Assembly (NCBI GenBank): GCA_963702845.1
Contig: OY969763.1
Span: forward strand, 2,432,001 to 2,496,000
Origin: an uncultured Verrucomicrobiae bacterium
GTDB taxonomy: Bacteria > Verrucomicrobiota > Verrucomicrobiia > Limisphaerales > Palsa-1400
DNA length: 64,000 nucleotides
Direction: 5' to 3'
Of the stretch, positions 25,274 through 51,117 are shown in pieces. The first letter of the stretch is position 1. Each line of letters opens with the position of its first letter. Under the pieces are notes generated by a model, which was given only the letters and a program-made list of their open reading frames with translations, was not told the origin of the DNA and did not search any database. A program made the position numbers and the translations under genes.

Positions 25274-25308
25274 TTGACAATAAGCGAATTTTGCGCAAAC
25301 GTTTGCGT
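25274..25308 (+). promoter_or_regulatory. -35 box plus LacI-type operator 1 (GH25 gene)
   Basis: TTGACA at 25274; GCGCAAACGTTTGCGT at 25293-25308. Confidence 0.85.
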
Positions 25309-25376
25309 TGCACCCCAAACAACACGGCAAAACCCAGCAAACTAACCATTAACCACTAAACAAAAAGAAAGAAGTT

Positions 25377-26144
25377 ATGATGCATCCACGAAAATCAATT
25401 AGCGCGTCTCTCGCGTTTATCACTGCGGGAATTGCCCTGGCCCTCTCGACACCCGAAGCCCAAGCACGTCCGTTAGGCATTGACGTCTCCAGTTTCCAAG
25501 GAAATGTCAATTGGACCGCTGCCTACAATAATAGCAATATCCGGATCGGGTTTGCCAAAGCGACTGAAGGCACGTTCTACCAGGACGCCTATTATCACAA
25601 CAACATGTCGAACGGAAAACTGGCGGGTTGCTTAATGGGCGCCTATCACTTTGCTCGTCCGGCATCCAACAGTGGCACCAGCGAGGCGAATTATTTTTAC
25701 AGCTTCGCGAACGCAAACTTCAATATTGGCGGACAAACAATTGGACCTGTTCTCGATATGGAGGTGTGGACTGGGCATGTGAATGCTTCCAGCTACACGG
25801 ATTGGGCGAACCAGTGGGGCAGTCAAATGATCACGAAAATGCATAACAACGGCCAGACGTGTAACTGGATTATCTACGTCAGCGCCTGCAGCGCATGCAA
25901 TTTCAACAGTAACATCACTGGGAGCCCCTGGATCGCCAATTACAATGGCCAGGATTCTCAGACGGGCACACCCTGGAGTTCGTGCGGTGGCTGCAATGTT
26001 TTTGCCGGCGTAGGTTGGCGTTTCTGGCAGTTCACGTCGACCGGCAGCGTTTCCGGCGTCAGCGGCAGTGTCGACAAAGACGTTTACAACGGCTTGCTTT
26101 CAGACCTGATGAGCAGCGATCTCATCATGCACCAATATCCGTAA
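25377..26144 (+). CDS. Secreted GH25 muramidase (lysozyme)
   Basis: Signal peptide ending AQA; GIDVSSFQG, AKATEG, GAYHFARP, LDME (DxE), PWIANY, FWQFTSTGSV and VDKD. Confidence 0.92.
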   Translation: MMHPRKSISASLAFITAGIALALSTPEAQARPLGIDVSSFQGNVNWTAAYNNSNIRIGFAKATEGTFYQDAYYHNNMSNGKLAGCLMGAYHFARPASNSGTSEANYFYSFANANFNIGGQTIGPVLDMEVWTGHVNASSYTDWANQWGSQMITKMHNNGQTCNWIIYVSACSACNFNSNITGSPWIANYNGQDSQTGTPWSSCGGCNVFAGVGWRFWQFTSTGSVSGVSGSVDKDVYNGLLSDLMSSDLIMHQYP

Positions 26145-26176
26145 TCTGATCCTCGATTAGTCGGATTCCGTCGAAG

Positions 26177-26207
26177 GTTCACCACAAATTGTGGTGAACT
26201 TTTTTTT
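26177..26207 (+). terminator. Rho-independent terminator
   Basis: GTTCACCAC-AAATT-GTGGTGAAC followed by 8 T, about 30 nt after the GH25 stop. Confidence 0.88.
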
Positions 26208-26308
26208 GCAACCTTCTCCGGGTCGAGATAAGCACAACGAATTACTCGTCCTCAAGACCGCGATGTCGTAAAAACAACTAAGAATTCGAGCAACCACGAA
26301 TGATAACG

Positions 26309-26343
26309 TTGACAAATAGACGCATTTGCGCAATCGTTTGCGT
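26309..26343 (+). promoter_or_regulatory. -35 box plus LacI-type operator 2 (pilin-like/GH127 unit)
   Basis: TTGACA at 26309; GCGCAATCGTTTGCGT at 26328-26343. Confidence 0.82.
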
Positions 26344-26368
26344 TAACCATTACTTAAATGCTTCAAAC

Positions 26369-27169
26369 ATGTTGCCCATGTTTCACTTAGTCGAACGTAA
26401 AAATCGTCACGCAAAAGACCTGCATCGGTTCGGGTTCACATTAATCGAGCTTCTGGTGGTAATCGCAATTATAGCGATCCTTGCTTCCATGCTCCTGCCA
26501 GCGCTCGCGCGTTCCAAGGAGCAAGCTCACCGGGCAAATTGTAAATCGAACATGCGACAGATGGCGGTCGCGGTGATTATTTATGCGGATGACAATCGTT
26601 CTTACTTCCCCATAGCGTTGCGCGATCAGCCGTCAAGCGTCTATCACGCGTCGTGGTTGCCGACGAATTCGTTTAACTACATGCACAAAGCATCGAAGAT
26701 TTCGAGTAATGCGCTGGGATGTCCCAATAAGCTGGCAATGACTGGCTGGTATTGGGAGCAGGATTACGGAACGCGCATTGGCTTTTATTGTGGCTGGGGT
26801 TTGCCGACGGCGCTGAACACGAGTGATCGGAGCCTGACGAATTACGGCGTGAATCCGTGGCCATGGGATTCGCCGCAGAAAACCACGGACATCACGCGTT
26901 ATTCGATGTTACTCGCTGACATCATTGAGAAAGGAACAGATAATCTGAACGGTATCCAAAATGTGACCGATTGTCCGCACGCGCCCACGGGCTCCCGCAC
27001 GAGCGCTGCGGGGCAGCTGGTCGAACCATCAGCGCTCAATTCCGACGGCGGCAATTTCGGACGCGTCGATGGCGCGGTGGAATGGCGTCGGCAAGCGGTC
27101 ATGCATCCGCACGTCGTTCACTGGAGCGCCAAAGGCGTGGAAAATGTAGCTTACATGGGTTATTGGTAA
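26369..27169 (+). CDS. Prepilin-type N-terminal cleavage/methylation protein
   Basis: [36 protein letters not shown] and [11 protein letters not shown]. Start placed downstream of the operator (26369 or 26378). Confidence 0.88.
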
Positions 27170-27187
27170 GCCCATAATTTTTCTGAC

Positions 27188-29536
27188 ATGAATCGACCTT
27201 ATCGTTCGCGCTGTTGCCAATTATTAATCCCGTCTTTGGTTATCCTGACAGGCATCGCCACGCATGCATCAGGTTCGCCGATTTCTCTGCTCCCGGAAAA
27301 GGTCGCGCCAGTAATCGTCGACAAACAGGATGCGCAAATCCCCGATCGTGTGCATCTGACCGGGTGGGTCGGCACGCGGGTCGCCATTAATGAATCGAAC
27401 CGGCTCGCGAAACTCGACACGGATCGTTTGCTGGAAGGTTATCGACATCGACCCGGCCGGCAGACGTGGGACGGCGAACATGTCGGCAAATGGCTGCACG
27501 CCGCGACGCTCGCCTGGGCGAATACTGGTGATCCGGTTTTGCGCAAACGCCTCGATCTGGTTGCGAGTGAACTGACGAAGTGCCAGATGCCGGATGGTTA
27601 TCTCGGCACTTATGTGGAAACGAATCGTTGGAAGGAATGGGATGTTTGGGCACACAAATATAATTTGATCGGGCTGGTGACTTACATGCGTTATACCGGC
27701 AATCAGGAACCGATGCCGGCCTGCCGTCGCATGGCGGATTTGCTTTGCCAGACGTTTGGCGACGGCCCGGGACAGCGCGATATTATTCCCGCGGGCTTTC
27801 ACATGGGATTGGCTCCGACAAGCGTGCTGGAACCAATGGTATTGCTCTACCGTCTGACCGGCGAGGCGCGATATCTGGACTTTTGCAAATACATTCTGCG
27901 CGCATGGGAACAACCGAACGGCCCGAAAATTGTTTCAACGCTTCTGGCAGGAAAAAGCGTGGAAGAAGTTGGTGACGCGAAAGCTTACGAGATGCTGTCC
28001 TGCCTAAACGGCGCGCTGGAGTATCATCGAACAGTCGGTGATCCACAAATTCTCAAAGCCTGTTTGAATGCGTGGCAGGACATCGTCGATAACCGACTTT
28101 ACATCACGGGGACCTCGAGCTATCGCGAGCATTTTCACGCGGATTATGATTTCCCGAACATTAACAACGTCGGCGAAACATGCGTCACGGTGACCTGGCT
28201 GCAGTTTAATGCGCAGCTATTGAGACTCACTGGAGAAAAACGTTTCGCAGACCAACTCGAGCGTACGACGTTGAATCAATTAATGGGGGCACAAAGCTGC
28301 GACGGCGGCGCCTGGGGCTACTACGTGCAGATGGAAGGAAAGAAGCCATATAGCAGTAATCTTGATGGCCATTGCTGCCTTTCGAGTGGGCCACGCGGCG
28401 TGGCGTTGATTCCGACGTTTGCATTTACCACCGATAGGGACGGTGCCGTTGTGAATCTCTACGATTCCGGTAGCGCAAACCTTGTTCTGCGAAATGGCGA
28501 TTCGATGAGCTTGGACTTGCAAACGCAATTTCCGAGCAGCGAAGACGTTCAGATCTCCGTCACGGCAGCGCCGAAAGGATCACATGCAATTAAATTGCGC
28601 ATTCCGGATTGGTGCAACGATGCGACGATCATGATCAATGGCAAAAAAGCCTCAGGCAAGAAGAACGGTGACGGTTATGTCGCTCTTAACCGACGCTGGA
28701 CAAGCGGCGATAGAATTGATCTGCGTTTAATAATGGAACCGCGCATCATCGTTGGTGATCACAAGAACGAAGGAAAATTTGCGATCCAGTACGGTCCACT
28801 GGTGCTAGCGGCAGACGCTGATTCGTCCAACATCTCTTCAAACGCACTTGAGGAATTTCGTATTTCCGAATTGAATCCGAGGAAGTTGCGCATCGTTACC
28901 GAACCCGCAACAGGTAAATTTAAAACTTGGCCAAGCGCCCACTTATTTCGAGTTGTCAGCGACAATGGTGAATTGCCGATTAGCCTGGTGCCGTTTGCCG
29001 ACGCGGGTTCAACGGGTGCTGAATACGAAGTATGGTTGCCTTACGGAACGCCGCGTGCGGGGCGCAATCTCCTACTGACAGGTTTGGAAACGCGCTCGCG
29101 CCGTCAAAGCATGGGCGACTCAGTCATTGATAATAATTTTCAAACGTATGCAAGCACCGCGAGTGGCAAGGCGGCAGCGCAAGACTGGTTTACCGTCTTG
29201 CTGCAAAAACCCGTAACGATTTCCCGTGTAGTAGTTGCGCATGGTCGTAGTGAACACAACGGTGGTTGGTTTGATGCCAGCGCGGGCAAGCCCCGACTGC
29301 AAATCAAAGTTGTCGGTGAAGAGAAATGGAAAAACTTGTGTGACATCAAAAATTATCCCGACACAACCGCAACGAGTTCCGCGGGACTCAATGCCGGTGA
29401 GCAGTTCACTTGCAAGCTGGAAAAACCCGTTGAAATTGCCGGTATTCGTGTTATCGGTAAGCCAGCGTGTGGAGACGATCCAAAGCAGGCGTTTGCAACC
29501 TGCGCAGAATTGCAGGCTTACAATGATCTGCCGTAG
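27188..29536 (+). CDS. GH127/GH146-type (beta-L-arabinofuranosidase-like) glycosidase with C-terminal F5/8-like domain
   Basis: WDGEHVGKWL, KAYEM, ETC and HCC Zn/Cys motifs, LRIPDW and YGPLVL; signal peptide. Confidence 0.88.
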   Translation: MNRPYRSRCCQLLIPSLVILTGIATHASGSPISLLPEKVAPVIVDKQDAQIPDRVHLTGWVGTRVAINESNRLAKLDTDRLLEGYRHRPGRQTWDGEHVGKWLHAATLAWANTGDPVLRKRLDLVASELTKCQMPDGYLGTYVETNRWKEWDVWAHKYNLIGLVTYMRYTGNQEPMPACRRMADLLCQTFGDGPGQRDIIPAGFHMGLAPTSVLEPMVLLYRLTGEARYLDFCKYILRAWEQPNGPKIVSTLLAGKSVEEVGDAKAYEMLSCLNGALEYHRTVGDPQILKACLNAWQDIVDNRLYITGTSSYREHFHADYDFPNINNVGETCVTVTWLQFNAQLLRLTGEKRFADQLERTTLNQLMGAQSCDGGAWGYYVQMEGKKPYSSNLDGHCCLSSGPRGVALIPTFAFTTDRDGAVVNLYDSGSANLVLRNGDSMSLDLQTQFPSSEDVQISVTAAPKGSHAIKLRIPDWCNDATIMINGKKASGKKNGDGYVALNRRWTSGDRIDLRLIMEPRIIVGDHKNEGKFAIQYGPLVLAADADSSNISSNALEEFRISELNPRKLRIVTEPATGKFKTWPSAHLFRVVSDNGELPISLVPFADAGSTGAEYEVWLPYGTPRAGRNLLLTGLETRSRRQSMGDSVIDNNFQTYASTASGKAAAQDWFTVLLQKPVTISRVVVAHGRSEHNGGWFDASAGKPRLQIKVVGEEKWKNLCDIKNYPDTTATSSAGLNAGEQFTCKLEKPVEIAGIRVIGKPACGDDPKQAFATCAELQAYNDLP

Positions 29537-29575
29537 GCTTTTAGATTGACTCGGAACTTGGCAGGAATCAGGATA

Positions 29576-29591
29576 GCGCAAACGTTTGCGT
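29576..29591 (+). promoter_or_regulatory. LacI-type operator 3 (lacI-rbs operon, autoregulatory position)
   Basis: GCGCAAACGTTTGCGT 17 nt before the LacI start; TTGACT at 29546. Confidence 0.87.
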
Positions 29592-29608
29592 AAGGCGAAA
29601 ACTGAAGC

Positions 29609-30683
29609 GTGGCAACTGATAAACATAAAACTCCAGAGCCGCAACCGGCGCGCGCGTTGGGCAGTCCCCTGCCCACTTTGCAACGCATCGCCGATGAATC
29701 TGGTGTTTCCGTTTCGACTATCTCTCGCGTATTAAGCGGTCAAGCGGGCCGTTATCGCATCAGCAAACAAACTGAGGCAACGGTTCGCGCCTTAGCCAAG
29801 CAGATCAATTTTGTTCCTAATCAACTCGCACGCGGCTTACGCTTGAGAAAGACGCTGACGGTCGGTCTCGTCATTCCTGATATTTCCAACCCGTTCTTCG
29901 CGGGCATTGCGCAACAAGTGACCCTCGGTACAGAGAAGCCACGGTTATTCCGTAATTTTGTGCGACAGCCAGGGCAGCGTTGAACTGGAAACCAACGCTC
30001 TAGCGCTCCTGCAGAGTCGCAATGTTGAAGGCGTAGTCCTCTGCCCCGTTGGCCAGTCTCCAAAACATCTGATGGATTTAGTCGAAAGCGGATTGCCTAT
30101 GGTTTTGGTCGACCGTTTTTTCCCAGACACATCCATTCCTTACGTCAGTTCCGATAACGTCAACGGGGCAAAACAAGCCACGGAATATTTAATCGCAAAC
30201 GGTCATCGGCGGATAATCTGCCTACAAGGTTTGCACGGCACCTCGCCGAATGAATTTCGTTTACGCGGTTATAAAGAAGCGCTTGCCGCTCATCACATCC
30301 CGGTAGACCGGTCATTGATCGTTGGTGACAGTTTCACTGAGCAAAGTGGCTACATCGAAACAAAACTGTTGCTGCGCACACAGCCAGATGCCAGAGCGAT
30401 TCTGGCCTTTAGTAACGTCAACGCGCTCGGCGCAATCCGAGCGCTGGTCGAAGATCGGAGGAAAATCCCGGACGACATGTCGATTATCTCTTTCGACGAT
30501 CCGGCCTACGCACCGTTCTTATCGCCGCCAATGACGACTATCGCGCAATCCTATTCTGAAATGGGCGCTGTCGCGGTGAAGCTGTTGTTCGACCAAATCC
30601 AATTTCCGCGAAGGCAAACCAAAGGCGGTATATTGCTGCCCACTACACTAGCCGTCCGGCAATCAGTAAGGAAAAAAGTGTGA
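29609..30683 (+). CDS. LacI-family transcriptional regulator; frameshift near 29933
   Basis: HTH TLQRIADESGVSVSTISRVL, hinge FVPNQLARGL and IPDISNPFF; continues in ORF 29958..30683 (PMVLVDR, SIISFDD, PPMTTI). Confidence 0.92.
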
Positions 30684-31712
30684 ATCCGGTAAAACGTGCG
30701 CCTTCAATTCTTGTCGTTGGAAGCTCTTGCACCGACATGGTTATTCGTGTCGATCGTTTGCCGCGCGTGGGTGAAACAGTTTTAGGCGGTGAATTCGCCA
30801 GCACGCCCGGAGGAAAAGGTGCAAATCAGGCTGTCGGTGCCGCGCGAGCGGGTGGCGCAGTGACTTTCATCGGTTGCATCGGACGCGATGCCTTCGGAGA
30901 TAAGATGGTCAAATGTTTGAGTGATGACGGAATCAATATGGAGTTCACGGTGCGCATCCGAAGGCTCCATCCGGCGTTGCGTTAATTTTTGTCGGCCCTG
31001 AAGGCCAAAACTGCATCGCCGTGGCGTCTGGATCAAATGGCAAGTTAACTCCTGTTGATTTAACACAAGCTCGCGAAGCATTCACCAACGCCAGCGTTTT
31101 ACTGCTGCAGTTGGAAACGCCGCTCGTTACCGTGGAAGCCGCCGCTGAAATTGCCAGCGAAACCGGCACGCGAATATTGTTGAATCCTGCACCAGCGCAA
31201 AAATTGCCGGCTAGTTTGCTGCAGCGACTTATTTCTCATCACGCCGAACGAAACCGAAGCGGAGTTGCTCACCGGCGTTCCCGTCACAGATTCTTCGAGC
31301 GCGGTAAGGCGGCAGTCTATCCTCCTGTCGAAAGGCGTGCAGAACGTGATTATCACGATGGGCAGCGCCGGCGCTTACGTGGCGAGAAAGAACTCGGCCA
31401 GATGGTGCCGGGATTCAAAGTGAATGCAATTGATACGGTCGCTGCCGGTGATGTTTTCAATGGCGCCCTGGCCGTTGCTCTCGCCGAAGGAAAATCATGC
31501 TGGATGCCACACGTTTTGCGAACGCGGCTGCCGCCGTCGCGGTGACGCGACACGGCGCTCAAGCGTCGGCACCAACGTGCAAGGAAATCGATCAAATGCT
31601 CTTTAGCGGCAAATCGGATCGTATTGTTTTTGCGGACGGCATTTCCAGAAATGGTCACGCCGAAAAGCCCGCTCTGCAATCAACCCTGTCGTCCGAAACT
31701 TACGCTAAATGA
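30680..31712 (+). CDS. rbsK: Ribokinase (PfkB family); several frameshifts
   Basis: VVGSSCTDMV, PGGKGANQAV, LLQLETP, LNPAPA, ITPNETEA (shifted frame), DTVAAGDVFNG and FANAAAA, across ORFs 30680..30985, 31021..31545 and 31497..31712. Confidence 0.85.
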
Positions 31713-32661: not shown

Positions 32662-32670
32662 CGGCCGCCT

Positions 32671-34192
32671 ATGGCTGACACTCCCCTGCTGCAAGTCACG
32701 GGCCTGCGAGAAAAGTTACAACGTCCCGGTTCTCTCTGATTTCAATTTCGATTTGCATCGAGGTGAAGTCCACGCGCTCGTCGGCAGCAACGGTGCGGGA
32801 AAATCAACATTCGCGCGAATTCTTTGCGGCCTAACCGCACGCGATCGTGGCGGCATTCGACTCAATGGCCGCGATTACGCTCCCGGTTCGAAACGCGAGG
32901 CCGAACACGCTGGTGTCGTCATGGTGCTGCAGGAGCTAAACGTCATTGGCACACTGACCATCGCCGAAAATATTTTTCTCAACCGCTTGCCACGAAGCGG
33001 CGGGTTGATCCGTTTCGACGACCTGCACAAACGCGCCGCAACCGCCCTCGCCCGCGCAGGATTGGATGGCGTCGATCCATCCACCCCGGCCGGGTTGCTC
33101 GGTGTCGGTCATCAGCAACTCGTTGAAATTGCGGGTGCGCTCTCGCAGGACTGCAGACTTCTCATTCTCGACGAGCCCACCGCAGCGTTGAGCGATCCAG
33201 AAATCGATCAGCTTTTCGAAAACGTCCGTCGACTGCAAAACGAAGGCGTTGGCATCATCTATGTCAGCCATCGCATGGATGAGATTCGCCGCATCGCCAA
33301 TCGCATCACCGTTTTGCGTGATGGCCGTCGCGTTGCGACTCATGAAACCGGAGCCATCACTTCGGCACAACTAGTGCGCGAAATGGCCGGTCATGATCTT
33401 CCTGAACGCAAACAGACCGGTTCGCGCGCGTCTGGTTCCGTTGCGTTGCAGGTGAACAATCTTCGAGCGGGCACTCGCGTGCGTGGCGCCAGCTTTGAAG
33501 CCCGATGCGGCGAGATCCTGGGAATCGCGGGGCTCATCGGCTCGGGCCGCACCGAAACCATGCGCGTGATTTTTGGAGCGGATCCAAAGCAAAGCGGGGA
33601 AATTTTCATCAACGGCAAGCTTGCCGAAATCCGCGCGCCAAAAGACGCTGTCAAAGCAGGAATCGGTTTTATTCCTGAGGACCGCAAACAACACGGCCTC
33701 TTATTGTCGCAATCCATTCGCGTCAACACGACACTGGCTTCCATTTCCTCCCACTCAAAGAAAGGATGGCTGGACATTGCCGCGGAAACGCTGACCGCCA
33801 GCTCGCAGCGCGAACAATTGCAGACACACTGCCATACGATTGAGCAAACCGTGTCAGAGCTGAGCGGTGGCAATCAACAGAAAGTCGTGATTGCGCGCTG
33901 GCTCGCACGCGATTGCAGCATCTTGCTGTTTGATGAACCCACGCGCGGAATCGATGTTGCGGCGAAAGATACAATTTACGAATTAGTCCGCGGACTCGCG
34001 GCCAAAGGCAAAGCAGTCGTCATCGTCTCAAGCGAATTGGTTGAGTTGATGGCACTGTGCGATCGAATTGCGGTGATGTCCGACGGCCGTATCGCTGCTG
34101 AGTTTCTGCCTGGCGAATGGTCGCAAGAAAAAATCACCAAAGCTGCGTTTAGCAGTTATCTCACTGAAACAGAAAGAGCCGCCGCGCTATGA
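32671..34192 (+). CDS. rbsA: Sugar ABC transporter ATP-binding protein (double NBD); 5' frameshift
   Basis: GSNGAGKS, ILDEPT, GLIGSGRTE, PEDRK, LSGGNQQK and FDEPTRGIDV. ATG at 32671 is out of frame with ORF 32753..34192. Confidence 0.88.
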
Positions 34193-37004: not shown

Positions 37005-37008
37005 CTAG

Positions 37009-40000: not shown

Positions 40001-40330
40001 CGCCCCATGTTTCCCGTTGCCGGTGGGATGAACAAACTGTTGCCGGGCGAAGTGGGCAAACCGGGATAACTAAGGTTGCCGTTTGTAACGATCGGATTGC
40101 CACTCACTGCAGCTCCGGCGAAATTGCTAATACACCCCCAAATTCCACCCGTCGCATTCGTCGCCAGGACGTAGCCCGCCGCATTTGTGAACCCGAAACA
40201 CAACTGCGCGCCAACCGTATACGAAGTCCCGCCATAGGCCGTTGCGTCGGCAAACGGTTCATAAACAGACAGGGCGTTCGCACGGCTGAGGGCTAATGCA
40301 AAAGAAATACAGACGGGTACCTTTTTTCAT
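37009..40330 (-). CDS. Secreted Ig-repeat protein A (shared N-domain, about 5 Ig repeats, propeller-like domain, short C-terminal domain); 1-nt frameshift in the A-run after ATG
   Basis: ORF 37009..40203 extends in frame to [31 protein letters not shown] 40330 is one base out of frame. Ig repeats follow P.I..QP...YQW.K.G...D...Y.V.V.N. Confidence 0.85.
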
Positions 40331-40407: not shown

Positions 40408-40443
40408 CCGCAAACGTTTGCGCAAAATGCCCCATTATGTCAA
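40408..40443 (-). promoter_or_regulatory. -35 box plus LacI-type operator 4 (protein A/GH-A unit)
   Basis: Minus strand TTGACATAATGGGGCATTTT-GCGCAAACGTTTGCGG. Confidence 0.85.
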
Positions 40444-40528
40444 GTTAGATTCGATTTCAGCCTCTTTTCAGGAGTAGCGTCCCTGCAATGCACAAGGACG
40501 TCCCACCTTATAACCTCGTCCTAAACCC

Positions 40529-43500
40529 CTATCTACTGAACACTGCATGCAGTGTCAGCCCATTAGTCATGATAAATGTCAGCACAGAGCTCGTGCTAAG
40601 GTCTTGAGTTCCATCCGTCCACTTAAGGAACGTTGTAGTCGGCGCTGCCTTAATGACGTAGGGCTGTCCGACGTCCAACAGCGTGCCATTAACCGGTTTG
40701 CCTAAGTTTGACAACACTCCGACGGCAGAGCCTCTTGCGGTGCCGCCACCCTGCTTCTCGACAACAACGTGGAACGTATCCGGATTAGCAATATAATAGT
40801 AGTTCACCGCTTTGCTGTAATTCGTGTTGGATGCGGAATCGACGGCAGCGGCGTAGAACGTGTTAGTGCCATCGGCTAGTTGCACATGTGTCGCCCACAG
40901 CGATATCTTGCCAGCGACAGGATTCGTTGGCGTAAACAAGTCGCTCATTACGAATGTTGCAGGGACCGTCAGCAAGGCAGTCGATGGATTCGTCCGTATC
41001 AACGTCACGGAAACAAGAAGGCCGTTGTCCAAGGCTTTGCCTCTGATATCGACTTCAGGAGCGACATTAGTTTGAGTCGCGACAACCAATCCATTCGTCG
41101 CTTTCGTTTTATCTTTCGGGTCCTTGATCATGATCATCGGCGGCGCTTTCGTGTCGAGCAACAGCGAGATCAGCAGTGACGCCGTCCCTTTATTGGGAGC
41201 GTTGTTGTGCACATCACAGGAATAAAGGCCTTCATAGCCAGGCTGTACATTCCCGATAAAATATGTAGAGTCAGTTGCTCCGGAGATCGCGTTTCCATTC
41301 TGGAACCATTGATACGTGAACGGCGCAAGACCTTTGGAAATTTTAGCCGTGAGCGTGTTATCAAAACCTTGTTTAACGTGTGGGCCGTGTTTCGAAACGA
41401 TCACCAGCTTCGGCGGATCGTAAAGCGTCACAGTAACACTATCGCTGGTTAGATGCCCGTTCGGCGCGTTTGTTACGACACAGTAATAGTTGCCGGCATT
41501 CTTTCCTGCTGTGAGTTTACTTAGTGTCAGGGTGGAGGTAGTCGCGCCAAGGATTCCAGCGGCGCCACTGTCTTTCAACGTTTTCGTCGCCGATCCGATG
41601 TGCTGAAACCATTGGTATTTCAGTGCCGTGCCACCCGCGCCGATCGTCAGCACAACGTTGCTACCCGTCGAACCGATCGCGTTCGCCGGCTGCATATTGA
41701 TCGCTGGATCCGTCACCGTAATAACTGCTACGGCACTGGTCGCGGTGACGCTGTTCGCGGTGACCGTCACATAATAACTGTCAGCATCGGCGCGAACTGC
41801 ATTCGTTTTCACAAACGTCGCATCAGTCGCGGCAGCAATTGCACTCGTACCTTTGTACCATTGATACGTCGGGCTCGAACCACCGGCCACAACTGAAAGG
41901 GTCAGGTCGGTGCCGGCATTGATGTTGTGCGATTGCGGCTGAGTATCGATCGATGGACCACAGCCTGTGACAGTGACAACGCGCGTCGCCGATCCAGTGT
42001 TATTGCTGGGATCGATTGCGCTATACGTCAGCGTATAAGTTCCAGCAACGTTCCCGTTCACGGTGCCAGTGGTACTAACAGACAATGAGCCGGCACAACT
42101 GTCGCTGGCCGTCGCGCCTGGGTCGCTGAAGCTGCTATTGCAATCGACATTCATCGTCGCCGAACCGTTTAACGTGACTACCGGCGGCGCGGTATCAACA
42201 ACCGTCAATGCCGCCGCCGTGCTGGTTACGGTTTGCAAACCGGCAACTGCAACACTGTAACTGTTCCCCGATCCTGCCGTCGTGACACCAACTAGCGTCA
42301 GGCTTGTGCTGGTCGATCCTGAAACGGATACACCGTCACTCAACGGATTCCCATTTTCATACCACTGATAAGTCACCGATGGCGTGCCGCTTGCGCTTAC
42401 GTTGAAAATAGCATTGCCGCCACATTGAACTGTTGCCGGGGTGGGTTGGACCGTGATCGCGGGATCGTTTACCGTCAACGTCGCCGACGCGCTATTGCTG
42501 CTCGCGCCATTACTTACAACGACTGAGTAAGTCTGAGCGTCCGTCGACGCGACACTCGAAACCGTCAGACTCGATGTCGTCGAACCGGTAATATTTCCGG
42601 TGTTCGACAGGTTCACGCCGCCTTTTTGCCATTGGTAACTTAAGGTGCCGCCACCAACCGCTGAAACCGAGAGCACGACGTTGTCACCGAAATTTGCAGT
42701 TTGTGAAGTCGGTCCAGAAGAAATGCTCACCGGGTTAATGACAGTTAAACTCGCGGAAGAACTGGTCGCGCTGCTGTGCATATTCGTAACGGTGAAAGAA
42801 TAGCTGCCCTGGTCTGCTGCCGAAAGATTCGCAATGCTCAGTGTGGCATTGAATGCACCGGAAACGATCGAGCCGGAGCCGGTTGTTCCGTCCGCCAACG
42901 CCACTGAATCTTTAAACCACTGGTACGTCAGCGGTGTGTCTCCAGCAGCCGAACCAGTAAATGTGACTGAACCTCCGGTCGCGCCCGTTTGGCTGGTCGG
43001 CGACGAGGTTACTGCAACCGGTGTTTCGGTCGGACCGAAACGAAGACCGCGGAAGGTTTGATTCACGCCAGCCGTTGTAAAAGTGGTCACCGGCGCAGCA
43101 ACACCGGTATCTGTGACAGTCACGATCCTGTTGAACGACGAATCTGTCGTCGTTGCAAAAATCACCGGAGCCGCACCGCTAAAGTCGACCGCAACGTAAC
43201 GCACAGAGCCAGTGCCCAGCGTGTAAACCAAAGTCCACGTCGAACCATCAAATTGCCATTTGGCCACGCCCGCACTGGTGCCGACGTAAATGTTCGTTCC
43301 CGTCGAATCAACAGCGATGTCCGACGGAACCGATGCCGGAACAAACAATGTCGTCGCTGCGGTTGCGGTTGTCGGACGGCCATTCCATTTCAAAATCCCA
43401 GTGCCGCTGCCTGAGCCCGAAACGGTGTAGAGGTTGCCATTGAAAATATCCACCGAACGCAGGTTCGCGAATGAGGTCTGGATGGTCGCTGCCGCCGCAT

Positions 43501-46147
43501 CCAATCCGAAATAATATGTTCCTCCGGCATTACCCGCTCCCCAGAAGTCGTTCGTGCCATCAAACGCTGCTGCCCGGAAATAGGTCGCGTTGTATGCGTT
43601 GGTGTCCGCAATCGCCAAAGTGAAATTGCCGTAAGTGTCAACCAAACCAATCCCGCGCGGTACCGCGGCAGATGTGGACGATTGAAGCGCGCCGGAATAT
43701 GGGGCGGCGGTGTTGTATCCAGGAAGAACGATGTAACGACTGTTCGCCGATCGCGATAGCGCACTGCCCGTCAACGTGCTCGAATTCTGATCGAGACCCA
43801 TTTCAATCAACGCGGATGAACCGCTGCTTGGAATGGAAACGGTGTTCACGTAGTTACCAGTTGGATCATACTGATCCAGGAATACAGAATTACCGTTCAA
43901 AGTTTGCGTCTCCGCCCCATCACCCGCGCGCAGAACGATCAAGTTGGTGGTATATAGTCGAACCGACGGTACCGCGCTCAGCACTGCCGCGGAACTTGTC
44001 ACCGAATTAATTGAATTTGTGACCACAACCGAATAGCTGCCGTTGTCCGAGGCCTGCGCGCTCGCAATCGTGTACACAAATGTCGTCGCGCCGGAAATTG
44101 GTGAGCCGTTCAGTAGCCACTGATAAGACAACGGAGCAGCTCCTGTTGCAGAAACTGCGAAGGCCGCTTTGTGGCCGGCAACTATTGTGCGCGAACTCGG
44201 CTGCGATGTGATCGAAGGCGGACTGAGCACCGTCAGAATAGCGTTACTGCTCAAAACGTTTGTTCCAGAAGCGTCGCCGACCAGAACTGTATAACTTGTC
44301 GCATCCGTCGAAGAAACTCCGGTCAAGGTCAGGGCACTCGTCAACGCCCCAACGACATTGCCGCCATCAGTCAGATTTGAACCGTTCTTCTTCCATTGGT
44401 ACGTAATCGGCGCTGCTCCGGTTACTGTGACGCTGAACGTTGCCGTGCCAGCGGAAGCGACCGTCGCCGATGCCGGTTGTCCCGTGATGATCGGCTCGAT
44501 TGCGGTCAAAGTCGCCGCGCTGCTATCGATTGATCCGCCAGGACTGGTCACCGTTACGGTGTAACTCCCATCATCAGTGTATGACATCGAGCTAACTGTC
44601 AGTGTTGCACTTTGCGCGCCAGAAATATTGCTTCCGTTCGAAAGGTTATTCACACCGTGATGCCATTGATACGTAATCGGTGAACTGCCGATCACCGAAA
44701 CTGAGAAGGTCGCGGTTGTTCCATAATTTCCGGTAACGCTCTGGGGCTGTGCAGTGATTGCCGGATCGGTCGCGCTTAAAGTCGCTGTCGAGGTCTGCGC
44801 TGTTCCACCCAATCCATTCGTCACATAGCACGAGTAAGACCCGACGTCAGAACCTGACGTACCGGTGATGGTCAGCGTCGATGAAGCCGCGCCGGAGATA
44901 TTGCCACCGTTAACAAGAGCACTCGCTCCTTTGAACCACTGATACGACAACGACGCAGCCCCGAGTGCTGTCACGGAGAAATTGACGTCCGTTCCAGGCG
45001 AGACCGTCTGACTGACGGGCTGTGTCGTAATGTAAGGATCCGTCACGTTCAAAACGGATGATGAACTCGTCGCCGTGCCAAGGCCGTTTGTAATAAGCAA
45101 CGTGTAGGTGCCTGCGCTCGCTTGCGATGCGCTGGAAACGGACAAAATCGCAGTAGTCGCGCCGGAAACAGTTCCGCCGTCCGTAACGTTCACACCGTTG
45201 CGTTGCCACTGATAAGTGGTTGGCGATGCGCCGGTGACAGTTGCTTTAATCGTCACGGCATCCCCTGCATTCTTCGATTGGGTTGTCGCCGGTTGCGCTT
45301 GAATTTCCGGCGCGCCAGTAACGACCGCCCAGTTCGTCGAGACACGCACATCATCCACCACACACGCTGGAGGCGCCGCATTTGTGTAACCACCAAGAAC
45401 AAAACCGGCAATTGCGCTGGCCAATTCAGTACCGGTTGTATCACTAACCGTAGCTGCGGGCGGAGTCGCCGCCCCGAGATTTGTTCCAGTAGGATTAATC
45501 CATAAATTGGCGGGATGCCCGCTCGTCACGAAATCGTACCCGGCAACGATGAACAATGTGTCACCAACATTGCGTACCGTTGTATCGTAAGTAACATTAG
45601 CGACCGCCGGCTTATTCTTGCCGATGCCTAACACATAGCCGCCACCCGATTGCTTCGCCACCAGGTAGGATTGCGCACGAATCAAAAACTGTTTGGTATT
45701 GCCGATCGTATCAGTGAACCCCGCAAGAAAGTTCGAGGACGTCGCGGACGTTAGCGTTGAAATATCTGTCACCTTCAACATGAACGAGTAGTAGCACTGG
45801 CCAGTCGATACCGTTGCAGGCAAAGTGATGCGTCCCATGTTACCCGGCTGTGGCGGAATATAAACCGCGTTGCCGCTGGAGGATCCGATTCCCGGATACG
45901 ATAAATTGTCGTTCGTGATTACAGGCACCCCGGCGTTGACAGGAAATGTATTACTGACACAGAACCACGCGAAACCCTGCGCATTGGTTTGCGTGGGGAT
46001 AGTAGTAGGTCCTCCCGCCAGGTAGGAGTTTGGTGTGTAGCTGGTTCCACCAGACGCAGTGGCATCCGCGAATGGATCGTAGAACGAAACGGCGGCACCG
46101 ACGTGCATGGCGAGAAGGAGTGAGGTGAGGGTTAGTAACTTTTTCAT
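40529..46147 (-). CDS. Secreted Ig-repeat protein B (1872 aa; shared N-domain, Ig repeats, propeller-like domain, DUF5011-like domain, more Ig domains)
   Basis: Signal MKKLLTLTSLLLAMHVGA; about 11 Ig repeats; DTAPPVVTLNG...DPGATASDSC...YTLTY...TRVVTV. Confidence 0.88.
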   Translation of the reverse strand: MKKLLTLTSLLLAMHVGAAVSFYDPFADATASGGTSYTPNSYLAGGPTTIPTQTNAQGFAWFCVSNTFPVNAGVPVITNDNLSYPGIGSSSGNAVYIPPQPGNMGRITLPATVSTGQCYYSFMLKVTDISTLTSATSSNFLAGFTDTIGNTKQFLIRAQSYLVAKQSGGGYVLGIGKNKPAVANVTYDTTVRNVGDTLFIVAGYDFVTSGHPANLWINPTGTNLGAATPPAATVSDTTGTELASAIAGFVLGGYTNAAPPACVVDDVRVSTNWAVVTGAPEIQAQPATTQSKNAGDAVTIKATVTGASPTTYQWQRNGVNVTDGGTVSGATTAILSVSSASQASAGTYTLLITNGLGTATSSSSVLNVTDPYITTQPVSQTVSPGTDVNFSVTALGAASLSYQWFKGASALVNGGNISGAASSTLTITGTSGSDVGSYSCYVTNGLGGTAQTSTATLSATDPAITAQPQSVTGNYGTTATFSVSVIGSSPITYQWHHGVNNLSNGSNISGAQSATLTVSSMSYTDDGSYTVTVTSPGGSIDSSAATLTAIEPIITGQPASATVASAGTATFSVTVTGAAPITYQWKKNGSNLTDGGNVVGALTSALTLTGVSSTDATSYTVLVGDASGTNVLSSNAILTVLSPPSITSQPSSRTIVAGHKAAFAVSATGAAPLSYQWLLNGSPISGATTFVYTIASAQASDNGSYSVVVTNSINSVTSSAAVLSAVPSVRLYTTNLIVLRAGDGAETQTLNGNSVFLDQYDPTGNYVNTVSIPSSGSSALIEMGLDQNSSTLTGSALSRSANSRYIVLPGYNTAAPYSGALQSSTSAAVPRGIGLVDTYGNFTLAIADTNAYNATYFRAAAFDGTNDFWGAGNAGGTYYFGLDAAAATIQTSFANLRSVDIFNGNLYTVSGSGSGTGILKWNGRPTTATAATTLFVPASVPSDIAVDSTGTNIYVGTSAGVAKWQFDGSTWTLVYTLGTGSVRYVAVDFSGAAPVIFATTTDSSFNRIVTVTDTGVAAPVTTFTTAGVNQTFRGLRFGPTETPVAVTSSPTSQTGATGGSVTFTGSAAGDTPLTYQWFKDSVALADGTTGSGSIVSGAFNATLSIANLSAADQGSYSFTVTNMHSSATSSSASLTVINPVSISSGPTSQTANFGDNVVLSVSAVGGGTLSYQWQKGGVNLSNTGNITGSTTSSLTVSSVASTDAQTYSVVVSNGASSNSASATLTVNDPAITVQPTPATVQCGGNAIFNVSASGTPSVTYQWYENGNPLSDGVSVSGSTSTSLTLVGVTTAGSGNSYSVAVAGLQTVTSTAAALTVVDTAPPVVTLNGSATMNVDCNSSFSDPGATASDSCAGSLSVSTTGTVNGNVAGTYTLTYSAIDPSNNTGSATRVVTVTGCGPSIDTQPQSHNINAGTDLTLSVVAGGSSPTYQWYKGTSAIAAATDATFVKTNAVRADADSYYVTVTANSVTATSAVAVITVTDPAINMQPANAIGSTGSNVVLTIGAGGTALKYQWFQHIGSATKTLKDSGAAGILGATTSTLTLSKLTAGKNAGNYYCVVTNAPNGHLTSDSVTVTLYDPPKLVIVSKHGPHVKQGFDNTLTAKISKGLAPFTYQWFQNGNAISGATDSTYFIGNVQPGYEGLYSCDVHNNAPNKGTASLLISLLLDTKAPPMIMIKDPKDKTKATNGLVVATQTNVAPEVDIRGKALDNGLLVSVTLIRTNPSTALLTVPATFVMSDLFTPTNPVAGKISLWATHVQLADGTNTFYAAAVDSASNTNYSKAVNYYYIANPDTFHVVVEKQGGGTARGSAVGVLSNLGKPVNGTLLDVGQPYVIKAAPTTTFLKWTDGTQDLSTSSVLTFIMTNGLTLHAVFSR

Positions 46148-46275: not shown

Positions 46276-46310
46276 ACGCAATCGTTTGCGCAATCACCTG
46301 ATTTTGTCAA
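46276..46310 (-). promoter_or_regulatory. -35 box plus LacI-type operator 5 (protein B)
   Basis: Minus strand TTGACAAAATCAGGTGATT-GCGCAAACGATTGCGT. Confidence 0.82.
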
Positions 46311-46449: not shown

Positions 46450-49400
46450 TTAATAATTCGCCGTATTAACCCAATTCGACGAACTCGAGTTAGTGCCTTT
46501 CCGCACGATTACGGCGCTGCCCGGCGTGAAAACCTGATCCGATCCCACATTGCTCGACCCGAGGCCTACCCGCCGCCATGCCCCGCTCCAATAATAGTAG
46601 ACCGCAGCCGAGGACTTGTTCCTCTGCGCAACAGTGTTATCAAAAGTGAGCAATTCATCAGTATGAGCCCCTGGCAACGGACTCGCCACAAATGCTCCGC
46701 TACTGAACAACCCCGATCCATCGAGCGAAACCGCCGCAGGCCGCGCCAGGCCAATAAAATTATCCTGTTGGAAGGTCAGCGAACTTGTAAATGGAATCGC
46801 CAGCTTCGACGTCGCCACGATTCCAAATGCCGTCAACGTCGTGTTCGTCACCACATTGTGCCGCACTATAAACTGCGTGTTCGGCAACAACACATCATCG
46901 CCGTGATCCGCCCCCCCCTGCCCGACTTGTTTCCACAACCCACTGTTGAAGAAGTAAATCTTAGCCGCACTCAAATTAATGCCGCTCGCGTTAAAATCCG
47001 GAATTAACACTTCCGTATGTCGATCACCACTTGTCGGCGAAACATTCACTCCACTGCCATTTGGAAACACCGTTTTAAATGTCCAATACGGCTCGATCGA
47101 TAGTGCGTCGAACGCTGTCACCGACATCAGCGTGTCATTCCCGAGGTTCACGGCGATTGTATTATTTCCATTCGTCGTAATCGGATAAAAACGCCCCTCT
47201 TTCGCACCCGAAATAATCCGCACATAGTAATTGTTCGACTGAGCGCCTGCTGAATAAACAAACTGGTTCAAACCCCAGCCCGGCGAACCACTCACCGTGA
47301 TAATATTGCTCGAAACCGACAACACCGTCGCCAATGCCGCTGCTGGTCGCAGAAATGGTAATGACACGAAACTATCCGAATTGCCCAGTAACGCGACCCT
47401 CACGAATCCGGCAACGTCACTTCCCGCCCCCGCCGACACACGATAAAACCCCTGCCCATTCGTGGTCGCGCTGTTGGAAACAACAATTGTCGCCCCGCCC
47501 GAATTGTAATTGCTTATCGCCGTCCACTGCGCGTCCAACAAATTCGTTTTCGATTGCAGACTGTAAACACCACTCGGATCTACGCTCCAATTCATCGACA
47601 TACTGCCATCCGCACTCGCGCTGAGGGCCGCTATATGTGAAGTGGAAGTAAAAATTGTTTGGTCACGGAAAAATGCGGAATCAGGAATGGTCTGCTTATT
47701 GATGCTCGGCCCACTCCACGCCAAAGTCAGCGTCGGCACTCCCACCGATCTCCGAGCGTAATACAAGCGAAACGGATGCAACCCAGCCTTCAGCGGAATC
47801 GTGCTACTCAGCTCACTGCCACCGGTGTAGCCATAATCCTCATCAATCAAAATGGCATCGTGAATCCGCAAGAAGGCTCCCGTGTCCGCAGCCATATAAA
47901 ACGTGTAAGCACCATCCGTTGGAATATTGAGATAACCCGTGAACAGCAAACCAACATCGTTATCTCTTGGCCGCACCGCGACTGTCGGACGATTCGTCGT
48001 CCCGCTCGTCACAGCGCTGAGCGTTGTTAACTCCGGCACCCACGGAAATGCTTCTGTGTAGGTGCTCCATTGAATGCCCGATGTGATTTGCGTTGCAACA
48101 GTCGCCGGTACAAGGGCGCTGTCAAATGGCCGCGGCGCGCTCGAGTCCGGCCGCCGCAACTGCAGCACCCGATCCTTCATCTGCTGTTGCAGCGTGGCAA
48201 ACGACGATTGCGTCGCCAGGTTAGTCGCCTGCTTTAAATCATGCGCGACATCGTAGATTTCAAAATCGTTTGTTTGCGAAGCAATGTTGTATCGCACGCC
48301 CTGAAAACCATTCAGCCGGATCACCTGCATCACGTTGCGATCGCGACCGCGATGCGCAGGCTCGAACTCTGAATAAGCGGGCGTGCTCGACCCCTCATCG
48401 TCATACTCCACGTAAATCGTGCTCGCTCGTTGCGCTCCAGTTCCGAGCAATGTCGGAACCAAGGAAACACCATCACTCCGCGCAGTTCCGACGAATCCAG
48501 CCAACTCAGAAAACGTCGGCATCCAATCCTGAAATTGTGATGGCGATTCGGTAATCGTGTTCGCCGCAATCGTTCCCGGCCAGCGAACAAATGTCGGCAT
48601 GCGAATTCCACCTTCCCACGTATCACGCTTCACTCCATCCATCGGACCGAACGTATCGAAGAAATTCGCGACATAACTCGGAGTCAGTGACAAATAATCT
48701 TCAGTCGTCGGCCCATTGTCGGATGTAAAAACGACAATCGTATTCGTATCAATTGCCAGATCCTGCAGCAGCTTCCTGATATCACCAACTGCATCATCGA
48801 TTCGGCGCACTCCCATCGCGTAACGCTGAAATACTTCGGGCCACGAGACCTCTGGAGTCGACGCGTTATTGTCATCGTCGTAGGTCGCCGACGCGTAATC
48901 GGGATTGACGTACCGAGTCGATCGTTCCGCTCGCGGTGTTGATCATGTGCCCCGCCGTTCCGATCCATTGCATGCCGCCGTTCGTGCCGCCACCAGACGG
49001 ATAAGCCTGCGTCGGCAATTCATACACTGCGTGCGGAGTATCATAAGCTAAATACAAAAAGAACGGCTGCGACGAATTCGTCGCGCGCTGGTCCTGAATC
49101 CATTTCTTCGCACGCGCCGTGAACAAATCCGTCGTGTAACACTTATCCAAAGTCGACATGACGTTGTTTGTCCCGTCATAGCACTCTTTACTCTTCGGGC
49201 TATAAATTGCCTCCTTCGGATAATGATCGTGACCATCCGCGTGCCGCTCGTATCCGAAGAAATAATCAAAACCGCGCTTCGTCGCAAATGCAGGCCAATC
49301 CGCGGGCGTCGTTCCACCGAGATCGTCACCACCTAATCCCCACTTCCCAATCGCCCCCGTCGCGTAACCAGCGCGTTTCAAAACACGCGGCACCGTATGA

Positions 49401-51073
49401 TTATCAGCAAGTGCCTTGTCCCATTGTTGATCATGAACATTCGCGTGCCCCTGATGAACGCCGAGCAAAAACGACGCTCGTGACGGCGCACACACCGGCG
49501 CCGGACAATAGTGCTGATGCAATTGCAAACTTTCCGCGGCAAAACTGTCGATGTTCGGCGTCAATTCCCGGGGTTGTCCCGGAGCCCGACTGTTCTGGTA
49601 AAGCACGCCGATATCGCCGAATCCTAAATCATCGCAAAGAATGAAAATAATATTCGGTCGCTTCGGAGTGATCGACGAATCGGACGCAAACAATTCCGCC
49701 GAACTGCTCACCGCCGTGTGCCCAATCCCATTCATTGCCCGCGCGGAATAGCTGCCAACGTCACTCGCTGCAATAGAACTAATCGTCAGTGCCGTCGTAT
49801 CAGCACCGGAAACATTTCCGCCGTTACTCAAATCGATTCCGTTCTTCAACCAACGATACGACAACGGCGCAATTCCAGTCGCGCCCACACGAAACGTGGC
49901 GATCCCCCCCAGCGCCGCCACCTGTGTGCTTGGTTGTGTTGTTATCGTCAAATCGTTAACGCTCAACGTCGCAACAAGTCCAGTGATCGAACCATATGAA
50001 TTGGACGCAACGAGCGAATAGCTGGCCGCATCTGATCCGGCGACATTTGACAACGTCAACGTCCCCGAAGTCGCGCCACTGACGGTGCCATTATTTGACA
50101 ATGTGCTCCCGTTTTTCAACCACTGATACGTCAATGGTGTTCCGCCAATTACGTAAGTCGGCAACGTAACCGTCGATCCACCTTCCAACACAATATTCGT
50201 GGGTTGCGTCTCAATATCCGGCGCACCCGTGATCACCGCCCACGTCAATCCCACCCGTACGTCATCTACAACACAACCTGGTGGCGCATTCGTAAAACAG
50301 CCCAGCATGAACGACTGAATTCCAGGTGCGTTCAGGTCCGTGCCCGTCGAGATGCTGATAGTTGCAGTCGGCGCAGAATTGGAGCCAAAAGCAGTTGCGG
50401 CAGGATTAATCCACAAACTCGCTGGATGGCCGCTCGTGTCATAGTCGTACCGTCCGATTACAAACAATACATCACCAACGTTTCGGACGGTCGTATCGTA
50501 TACGGAATTGGCGGTGGACGGTTTATTTTTGCCTATACCAAGCAAGTATCCGGCACCCGATTTTTTCGCGACGACATACGATTCCGCTCGAGCCAATGCC
50601 GCATTCTGACTCCCCACATTGTCACCAAACGCCGCGAACATATTTGGAGTCGAGCTCGTGCTCAGCGAGGAAACGTCGGTCACTTTCAACAAAAACGAAA
50701 AGTAGACCTGACCGCTTGTTATCTGGAACGGCAACGCCATTCGGCCCATCACACCAGTTAGAGGCGGAATAAAAACTGAATTTCCAGAGGACAGGGGCAA
50801 TCCGATATATGACAAGCTCCCATTGGTGATGGTTGGAATCCCGGGCGGCAAAGTTGGAAAAGTATTACTCACTCCGTACCACGCACCGCCCGATGCGTTC
50901 ATCAACGCCGGAAAACTTTTGTTCGTGTTCGCAAACGTCGCGCCGACAGGATACGTAGTTCCGCCATTCGCGGTAGCATCAGCAAAGGGTTCGTAAATGG
51001 ATAGCGCAGAGGTTCGGCTCGTGAGAACAAGCACTACGGAAAAGGCTAACAGTAATTGTTTAAAGCGTTTCAC
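46450..51073 (-). CDS. Secreted protein C: shared N-domain, 2 Ig, Cys-type sulfatase, PA14-like and TIGR02597-like domains; frameshift near 48912
   Basis: GTG at 51073 begins a signal peptide; RPNIIFILCDDLG, CAPSR, GKWGLG and PH in ORF 48872..51121. The shifted frame reads YVNPDYASATYD...RYAMGVRRID, FTSDNG, WEGGIR and runs into ORF 46450..48816. Confidence 0.82.
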
Positions 51074-51082
51074 GAGGAGCTC

Positions 51083-51117
51083 GCGCAAACGTTTGCGCAT
51101 TGCTGAATGATTATCAA
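51083..51117 (-). promoter_or_regulatory. -35 box plus LacI-type operator 6 (protein C)
   Basis: Minus strand TTGATAATCATTCAGCAAT-GCGCAAACGTTTGCGC (perfect 16-bp palindrome), 9 nt before the GTG start. Confidence 0.87.

Follow-up and report, generated by a model that had tools for sequence, protein, structure and literature searches.

A predicted local LacI regulon that probably couples ribose uptake to secreted glycan enzymes in a verrucomicrobial genome

Bacteroidetes carry ribose utilization systems, the rus loci, such as BT2802-09 of Bacteroides thetaiotaomicron (bioRxiv 10.1101/574913). In the parts of that preprint considered here, rus loci include at least 22 glycoside hydrolase (GH) families, ADP-ribosyl and nucleoside hydrolases and an aryl sulfatase; LacI proteins are their second commonest regulators, and their enzymes showed weak activities only, with roles called enigmatic. 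Local LacI regulons have been described to use an even palindrome centred on CG, most of them with one or two operons, in a study of Proteobacterial LacI regulons that includes no Verrucomicrobia (Ravcheev et al. 2014, PMC4052901). Here we describe a 26-kb gene cluster in a stretch of 64,000 nucleotides (the window; contig OY969763.1, assembly GCA_963702845.1) from an uncultured Verrucomicrobiae bacterium. We consider it probable that this cluster is a local LacI regulon, induced by ribose, which joins secreted glycan enzymes to ribose uptake.

Judged by its genes, the cluster would work like the rus loci and the RbsR regulons while belonging to neither, as it has no SusC/D and its regulator fails the RbsR cut-offs. 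As in rus, a ribose signal (predicted here), a ribokinase and a ribose transporter are coupled to a variable set of hydrolases, and a ribokinase is paired with a RusR or LacI regulator. Unlike rus, the cluster has an ATP-binding cassette (ABC) transporter in place of RusT, several promoters with a defined operator, large immunoglobulin-like (Ig)/propeller proteins, a prepilin and a multidomain sulfatase, and it lies in Verrucomicrobiota; profile scans of the cluster proteins found no TonB receptor or SusD family, hence no SusC/SusD pair of the rus type. It resembles the Proteobacterial RbsR regulons in being local and, as predicted, autoregulated, in its CG-centred palindrome and in joining rbsK with a ribose-type ABC transporter, but curated models do not class its regulator as an RbsR ortholog, and six sites serve about 13 genes, mostly secreted. 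Named homologs of the cluster proteins come from Pedosphaera, Limisphaerales and Verrucomicrobiota, which makes it likely that G000, the genome of the window, is a member of this order. Searches for Verrucomicrobial ribose utilization, ribokinase or sulfatase, and for a Pedosphaera ribose LacI regulon, returned no literature on this system among the matches listed. The regulatory logic is of an ordinary type and well supported; the points of interest are the candidate ribofuranosidase and the predicted ribose-bearing polymer. The cluster offers a clean conserved gene set and, for a LacI clade found in several phyla, a predicted, defined operator; it also shows how bacteria of the Planctomycetes-Verrucomicrobia-Chlamydiae group organise a glycan-utilisation locus without SusC/D.

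The core CGCAAWCGTTTGCG, an even palindrome with a central CG as expected of a local LacI-family regulon, is present in six copies, one ahead of each of the six transcription units of the cluster. An earlier, sequence-only reading of the window had reported these six cores; all are there, each starting one base after the coordinate it gave. They are, in window coordinates:

25294..25307, + strand: operator 1, a perfect palindrome, 14 bp past TTGACA and 69 bp ahead of the GH25 start
26329..26342, + strand: operator 2, 14 bp past TTGACA and 26 bp ahead of the prepilin start
29577..29590, + strand: operator 3, in autoregulatory position, 25 bp past TTGACT and 18 bp ahead of lacI
40409..40422, - strand: operator 4, 15 bp past TTGACA and 78 bp ahead of Ig protein A
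46277..46290, - strand: operator 5, 14 bp past TTGACA and 129 bp ahead of Ig protein B
51084..51097, - strand: operator 6, 14 bp past TTGATA and 10 bp ahead of the likely GTG start at 51073

With up to two mismatches on both strands, the window holds 17 matches, against a mean of 3.44 and a maximum of 10 in 100 shuffles. In the window's own genome (G000, 6.03 Mb; other G-numbers denote further genomes, L-numbers loci, and C1 a contig of G000), the perfect palindrome CGCAAACGTTTGCG occurs four times, always inside the cluster, and CGCAATCGTTTGCG three times, twice within the cluster and once at C1:5570130 in an open reading frame (ORF) of 613 amino acids (aa). Six of the seven exact matches in the genome are thus found in 0.4% of its length, and none lies ahead of purine genes or other distant genes. 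The sequence-only reading had proposed a genome-wide scan with a position weight matrix: the six sites come first at 27.3-29.4 bits, scores that are inflated since the matrix was trained on them, and the next site in G000 reaches 21.7 bits. The reading's further statement that the window holds no other copy is right for exact matches, and fails for a one-mismatch variant at 53850 (16.5 bits) within a FadL-like ORF. A widespread motif, which it had named as the case that would speak for a global regulator, was looked for and not found among these seven exact sites; such a regulator was rejected in view of the confinement of the sites in G000 and in relatives.

Read in the direction of transcription, five of the six sites follow TTGACA or TTGATA at a distance of 14-15 bp and therefore cover the -10 region, while the lacI site is located 25 bp past TTGACT, near +1. 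The sites end 10-129 bp short of the likely start codons. Using the hexamer frequency of G000, the chance that five of six sites fall 14-15 bp after TTGA[CT][AT] is about 1e-13, a figure for which hexamer and spacing were picked after the sites had been seen. A generic sigma-70 scan of the window gave 10 matches (10.6 in shuffles), none at the operators, and is uninformative because the operator covers the -10 region. In most other genera the distance from the -35 hexamer to the site is 23-26 bp instead of 14-15 bp; since this spacing varies, the sites are better read as operators, and the possibility that they are promoter elements was rejected. In the same-genus genome G001, the -35 hexamer and the operator are kept and the spacer has diverged in three of three orthologous promoters (those of the GH25, Ig-protein and prepilin-GH127 orthologs), with a gene order different from that of G000. 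The layout ahead of lacI in G049 is the same as at operator 3.

The genes behind these sites were identified as follows, in agreement with the earlier assignments of GH25, prepilin-type protein, GH127, LacI, ribokinase, sugar ABC transporter, Ig proteins and sulfatase:

25377..26144, + strand: GH25 muramidase-like gene (PF01183, E 4e-30), with signal-peptide-like N-terminus and the motifs DVS36, LDME126-129 and VDKD232
About 26177-26207: hairpin and T-run after GH25, read from the sequence and absent from the terminator-scan list
26369..27169, + strand: prepilin-type N-methylation protein (PF07963 and TIGR02532 over cut-off; DUF1559-like under cut-off)
27188..29536, + strand: GH127-family cysteine glycosidase (PF07944, E 2e-57; PF20736), with a weak C-terminal F5/8 module
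29609..30683, + strand: LacI-family regulator (PF00356, PF13377), helix-turn-helix (HTH) followed by an xRYRIS insertion; frameshift near 29937
30680..31712, + strand: ribokinase, rbsK (pieces of TIGR02152), with six single-base indels relative to L142
31709..32661, + strand: sugar-binding protein, rbsB-like (PF13407), with six small indels relative to L142
32671..34192, + strand: sugar ABC ATPase, rbsA-like, with one frameshift near 32708
34189..35199, + strand: sugar ABC permease, rbsC-like (PF02653)
35142..37004, - strand: GH39-like clan GH-A hydrolase, with signal-peptide-like N-terminus and invariant N219-E220 and E313
37009..40330, - strand: Ig protein A, with an unnamed N-domain, five Ig domains and a six-bladed-type beta-propeller; frameshift in an A-run just past the start
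40529..46147, - strand: Ig protein B, with N-domain and propeller 64% identical to those of A and about 11 Ig domains
46450..51073, - strand: Ig-sulfatase C, with N-domain, two Ig domains, S1 sulfatase with PA14, and TIGR02597 tail; frameshift near 48913

The lacI gene encodes an HTH and a sugar-binding core, lies in the cluster and has a site ahead of it, and the six palindromes are likely the operators of this LacI repressor. Among 80 loci with LacI relatives from many phyla, 56 have a site near lacI (at most one mismatch, no more than 400 bp before or 150 bp after the gene), while a reversed-pattern control gave 0/80. The 11 most distant LacI proteins of this set, which by visual assignment lack the xRYRIS insertion behind the HTH, have the site in none of their loci. 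In five genomes with an ortholog, the closest by E-value except for G049 and representing five genera and three families, 11 of the 12 exact genome-wide sites are on the lacI contig, and the control gave none. All these genomes are kin, so that the counts are not independent trials. The sequence-only reading had suggested a comparison of gene order in relatives, and we found that the operator recurs in five other genera before the same genes as in G000, in shuffled order: those for the N-domain protein, the Ig-sulfatase, the Ig-propeller protein with the GH39-like hydrolase, GH127, the prepilin, lacI and ribokinase, with either an ABC transporter or a single permease for transport. The same cargo stands under operators in G624, G766, G612, G679 and the metagenome contig L141; G510 has the lacI region, ribokinase and GH127 only, and G679 is without ribokinase at the operator-bearing locus. 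The GH39-like gene in other contexts served as a negative control: 20 of its loci (from the top of the list of 51 genomes with a match, after known clusters) contained neither a site nor a ribokinase. Single matches in G058, G010, G018, G034, G025, G030 and G002 have no cluster genes behind them, among the matches listed, and the match at G766:C45:53874 lies within an ORF. The operator assignment of the sequence-only reading is supported by sites that are local, overlap promoters and are conserved with the LacI clade.

Members of the Ignavibacteria-type branch of this LacI clade (L107, L109, L113, L116, L119-L121 and L131) carry the same operator, often twice. Their cargo comprises an SBP_bac_1 ABC transporter, GWxTD and FadL-like proteins, a protein with a T9SS tail and a dehydrogenase, with no ribokinase in the flank.

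The signal is very probably ribose or ribose phosphate, as far as the gene content tells. Ribose had been put forward before, and it stays the most likely sugar: all 15 linked kinases score over the curated ribokinase cut-off TIGR02152 (310.7 against 299.65 for the ribokinase ortholog of the collinear locus L142) and 14 of 15 over NF008353. The neighbours of the LacI clade point in the same direction, the 80 loci having a ribokinase-like gene in 38 cases, a nucleoside hydrolase in 28 and an ADP-ribosylglycohydrolase in 11. No epimerase or isomerase for another sugar was found among the cluster genes. Some relatives have a PF07168-type permease, a candidate counterpart of RusT.

Two observations on the kinase and the transporter stand beside this. 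The ribokinase at L142:8334-9332 is without 36 bp over the AGD anion-hole motif, which is kept in the window gene; this gap may be an assembly collapse or mark a dead enzyme. In G633 and G791, a single gene encodes a fusion of a ribose-type ABC permease with a HisKA_3/HATPase histidine kinase (L225:80-1804 and L226:13101-14738). Both genomes have a GH127-rbsK-rbsBAC operon without the operator, no LacI ortholog was found in them, and the fusion is possibly a transporter-coupled sensor that replaces LacI.

Several findings weigh against a ribose-induced regulon of the local LacI. In this assembly, the reading frames of three of its genes (lacI, rbsK and rbsB) are broken. Three operators occur in G001, yet a LacI ortholog at E<=1e-30 was not found there (this genome is 73% complete, and its contig ends inside GH127), and in G011 an operator with a -35 hexamer precedes GH127-permease-rbsK with no lacI in the locus. 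Within the order, the GH39-like gene is found in 51 of 401 genomes and the GH127 clade in 63, but a LacI ortholog at E<=1e-75 in only 13, G000 counted; the cargo therefore also works without this LacI. As to the sugar, 32 of the 80 LacI loci lack all three neighbours (ribokinase, nucleoside hydrolase and ADP-ribosyl hydrolase) within the flanking sequence retrieved, which is short in many cases. The intact LacI ortholog remains under the RbsR cut-offs (214.5 vs 382 bits for NF047341, which is nevertheless its best curated model, and 184.2 vs 531 for NF007743). The binding protein reaches 173 bits with the D-allose model (AlsB, cut-off 335) and 152 with RbsB (cut-off 337); its ortholog is closest in the PDB to 4YLE (E 6e-113), with E. 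coli RbsB only at E 1e-34.

The frame breaks in G000, which affect lacI, rbsK, rbsB, the starts of rbsA and Ig protein A, and Ig-sulfatase C, could be addressed by comparison. L142 is collinear with window positions 29819-40051 at 79% identity, and lacI, rbsK, rbsB and rbsA are open in it; intact LacI orthologs are found in L141, L142, P0001 and G049. Relative to L142, the window has 13 indels of one or two bases in 29937-32708 (2.8 kb), and the 7.3 kb that follow are free of frame-breaking ones. In the broken genes, substitutions affect 37-49% of third and 2-7% of second codon positions, like in intact genes. Because the indels cluster in one patch and the substitutions are third-position-biased, consensus error is favoured over decay, and the frameshifts in lacI-rbsK-rbsB look like assembly errors.

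These breaks are one argument for the view that the sites are read by another factor, PurR-like or another LacI elsewhere, or are by-products of duplicated promoters in a cluster that is decaying in G000. We regard this as highly improbable. G000 does encode one further full LacI (C1:1323948), the three Ig genes are paralogs, and the core matches the PurR box. In the part of the regulon study considered here, PurR kept the ancestral RbsR motif (PMC4052901). Against it, sites are missing ahead of purine and other distant genes, they also precede non-paralogous genes with differing spacers, the site accompanies this LacI clade in different phyla, and the 13 confined indels with third-position-biased substitutions fit consensus error and not decay. 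Moreover, unlike a PurR global regulon, six of seven exact sites lie in one cluster, and the LacI ortholog scores 174 vs 501 bits with the PurR model.

The scores of LacI and of the binding protein, the latter nearer to allose-binding models, would also suit the same regulon with another monosaccharide as effector, one that ribokinase-like kinases and RbsB/AlsB-like binders handle (D-allose, D-arabinose or 2-deoxyribose). DUF2961 genes, presumably for D-arabinofuranosidases, lie near GH127-rbsK in L059, L231 and L239 and fit this as well. We judge it decidedly unlikely, given kinases that pass the curated ribokinase cut-offs, recurrent neighbours whose product is ribose or ADP-ribose (the nucleoside and ADP-ribosyl hydrolases), and a cluster with no epimerase or isomerase for another sugar.

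For a ribose-induced regulon, we propose that LacI blocks the six promoters until D-ribose or ribose phosphate binds to it. This one predicted signal would jointly induce the secreted glycan-cutting enzymes, the surface proteins, the ribose-type ABC transporter and the ribokinase. Signal peptides would export the sulfatase and the GH39-like hydrolase, and these two would open a sulfated, galactose-containing glycan with ribofuranose, from which the GH127 enzyme would free ribose. This glycan is most likely an extracellular polymer of microbes or algae. Import of the ribose would be the task of the ABC transporter (in some relatives, of a single permease), and ribokinase would convert it to ribose 5-phosphate; incoming ribose would lift repression and thus act as positive feedback.

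The conserved core of the cargo, as identified from homology, is formed by GH127, the GH39-like hydrolase, the prepilin, Ig/propeller proteins and a sulfatase of putative 3-sulfo-galactose type. Ig-sulfatase C is one gene, as an intact ortholog aligns across the break near 48913; the best PDB matches of this ortholog are 9S8A (E 4e-162), 9S8X and 7AN1. In the portion considered here of the paper on Amuc0451 and Amuc0953, S1_20 sulfatases of Akkermansia muciniphila desulfate 3S-Gal, and the entries include 9S8A and 9S8X (PMC13524802), which we assign to these two proteins by size and domain layout. The cluster sulfatase has these as its closest solved structures and shares the PA14 domain that abuts the sulfatase, but differs from them in its N-domain, Ig repeats, TIGR02597 tail, predicted ribose regulon and non-gut lineage. 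Several relatives have a second sulfatase, closest to the S1_16 kappa-carrageenan sulfatase, and some clusters add GH114, DUF4838 or chondroitinase-B-like genes. The TIGR02597 tail (window 46453-47451) has 13 further copies in G000 with 56-61% identity, and the Ig-sulfatase C orthologs of G624 end in a LamG domain instead.

The GH-A hydrolase had been named as such by the sequence-only reading, and this is borne out by fold and not by family models: it matched no Pfam family at E 0.01 and no NCBIfam model, while its predicted structure (pLDDT 92) is closest to 5JVK and then to PslG. It has 1307 homologs among 8000 scored. With the TIM-barrel fold of clan GH-A, NE as acid/base and E as nucleophile in the predicted model, it resembles the GH39 enzymes of B. 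cellulosilyticus (5JVK) and P. aeruginosa (PslG), but at 18% identity their substrates are not transferable. Prepilin orthologs are present in the clusters of G001, L141, G624, G679, G766 and G612. G000 encodes the N-domain of the Ig proteins 11 more times and their beta-propeller 7 more times, without operator, and a protein-atlas search with both domains gave only unnamed clusters. The propeller matches many six-bladed propellers (nidogen with Z 24.1, rmsd 2.9 and 248 aligned residues; TolB with Z 19.5); no enzyme stood out in this structure comparison, and the matches show no function. For the Ig/propeller proteins, a non-catalytic role in binding or display is likely.

The sequence-only reading took a different view of the cargo, namely as serving to forage on bacterial envelopes or necromass. 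Spelled out, this would be a general kit for necromass and biofilm matrix, with a muramidase, Psl/Pel-type hydrolases and a protease. The same local LacI regulon would then be induced by nucleotide-derived ribose, which would signal that cells have lysed, and release of ribose by the cargo itself would not be required. The GH25 protein of the cluster has the family match and the catalytic DxE motif, so that muramidase activity is predicted, and GH25 stands under a conserved operator in G000 and G001. The fold similarity of the GH39-like protein to PslG, the GH114 and chondroitinase-B-like genes of relatives, and the nucleoside and ADP-ribosyl hydrolases beside the LacI clade can be read in the same way, as can a second perfect operator in G049 (L024:6573, G049:C448), far from lacI-GH127, which precedes a 1172-aa subtilase with BACON repeats. 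We nevertheless consider this view unlikely, and foraging on peptidoglycan is less supported than it seemed. GH25 is one of 21 paralogs in G000 (17 matches in G001, 1-6 in four other cluster-bearing genera, there outside the cluster), it is operator-linked only in these two genomes of one genus, and the clusters with operators in G624, G679, G766, G612, G510 and L141 do not contain it. It thus appears to be a late, genus-level recruit. Furthermore, neither a nuclease nor a nucleoside or ADP-ribosyl hydrolase is encoded in the window, the matches of the two sulfatase types are to galactose-sulfate enzymes, which peptidoglycan does not call for, and GH127 is tied to ribokinase even without LacI. 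Because the rest of the cargo is conserved and GH25 is found at genus level only, the conserved cargo seems directed at a sulfated glycan that contains galactose and ribose, and not at cell wall, a target whose identity we infer. The GH25 expansion in G000 includes tandem arrays (C1:5493998-5500151, 1787272-1791720 and 48754-54054).

The GH127 protein had been taken for a furanosidase. Its family is confirmed, but it is probably not the usual beta-L-arabinofuranosidase. As in the known enzymes HypBA1 (PDB 3WKW) and BT 6EX6, it has the Pfam GH127 domains and keeps the catalytic positions: those of HypBA1 Glu322, Glu338, Cys340, Cys417, Cys418 and His194 are invariant in 13 aligned members, among them E314, E330, C332, C396 and C397 of the window protein. 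The Cys and Glu residues among them are catalytic or bind zinc, and His270 and Arg273 of the GHAVR motif serve in sugar binding. Unlike the known enzymes, the subfamily of the window protein has this motif replaced by G-N/D-x-K-A-Y-E-M, with N/D at His270 and A at Arg273, and Glu143 by Lys, a change of the sugar pocket that sets it apart from HypBA1-type beta-L-arabinofuranosidases; a second GH127 in G000 retains GHAVR. The aceric acid hydrolase model NF049879 gave 169 vs 950 bits, far under its cut-off. For Cys417 and Glu322, catalytic roles have been reported (PMC8106489, in the part considered here).

The link of this subfamily to ribokinase is a further difference from known GH127 enzymes. 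Among 20 GH127 loci picked by score alone from 74 places listed, with known clusters left out, eight have a ribokinase and/or ribose-type transporter in the same gene run and twelve have none; the GH39-like gene has such neighbours in 0/20. Most of the eight are from genomes in which the LacI ortholog was not found, and L210 is a ninth case in a shorter locus. GH127 is also fused to an ADP-ribosylglycohydrolase (L050:10405-14007) and to a sulfatase (L222:7505-11443). In a quick version of a GH127 tree, where 12 rows were chosen through LacI or the cluster and L023 was labelled linked on lacI alone, linked copies sit on several branches. By our own reasoning, alpha-D-Ribf and beta-L-Araf are alike in C1 and C2 configuration, and because of this agreement an alpha-D-ribofuranosidase is a reasonable prediction. 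We therefore suggest, tentatively and with rather more doubt than for the regulon itself, that the WDVWAHKY/GNxKAYEM subfamily of GH127 consists of alpha-D-ribofuranosidases and that the regulon is a SusC/D-free, surface-displayed machine around this enzyme. The candidate substrates, in the same tentative proposal, would be O-glycosides, i.e. sulfated extracellular glycans or alpha-ribosyl remnants of ADP-ribosylation. If true, the subfamily would fill a gap, as the enzyme for the release of ribose from O-glycosides has been missing so far. The term GH127 is absent from the main text of the rus preprint, the part of it considered (bioRxiv 10.1101/574913), and no publication was found that joins GH127 with ribofuranosidase or with ribokinase and ribose, in a search that covered subscription literature poorly. 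The polymeric substrates of the rus clusters are not known in Bacteroidetes, and the present cluster allows a direct test, on one or two recombinant proteins, of the natural polymers that are sources of ribose and of the way in which it is freed. Apart from GH127, a nucleoside hydrolase is fused to an ADP-ribosylglycohydrolase at L072:9712-12318.

The cluster borders on a tRNA-Cys gene (window 24955-25029). A recent island at this tRNA has no support, as the GC content is flat at 51-56% across the window. Upstream of the regulon, window positions 51265-63788 contain no exact operator and encode, on the same strand, a GDSL esterase-like protein, a FadL-like outer-membrane protein and a 3249-aa cadherin/FG-GAP/LTD protein.

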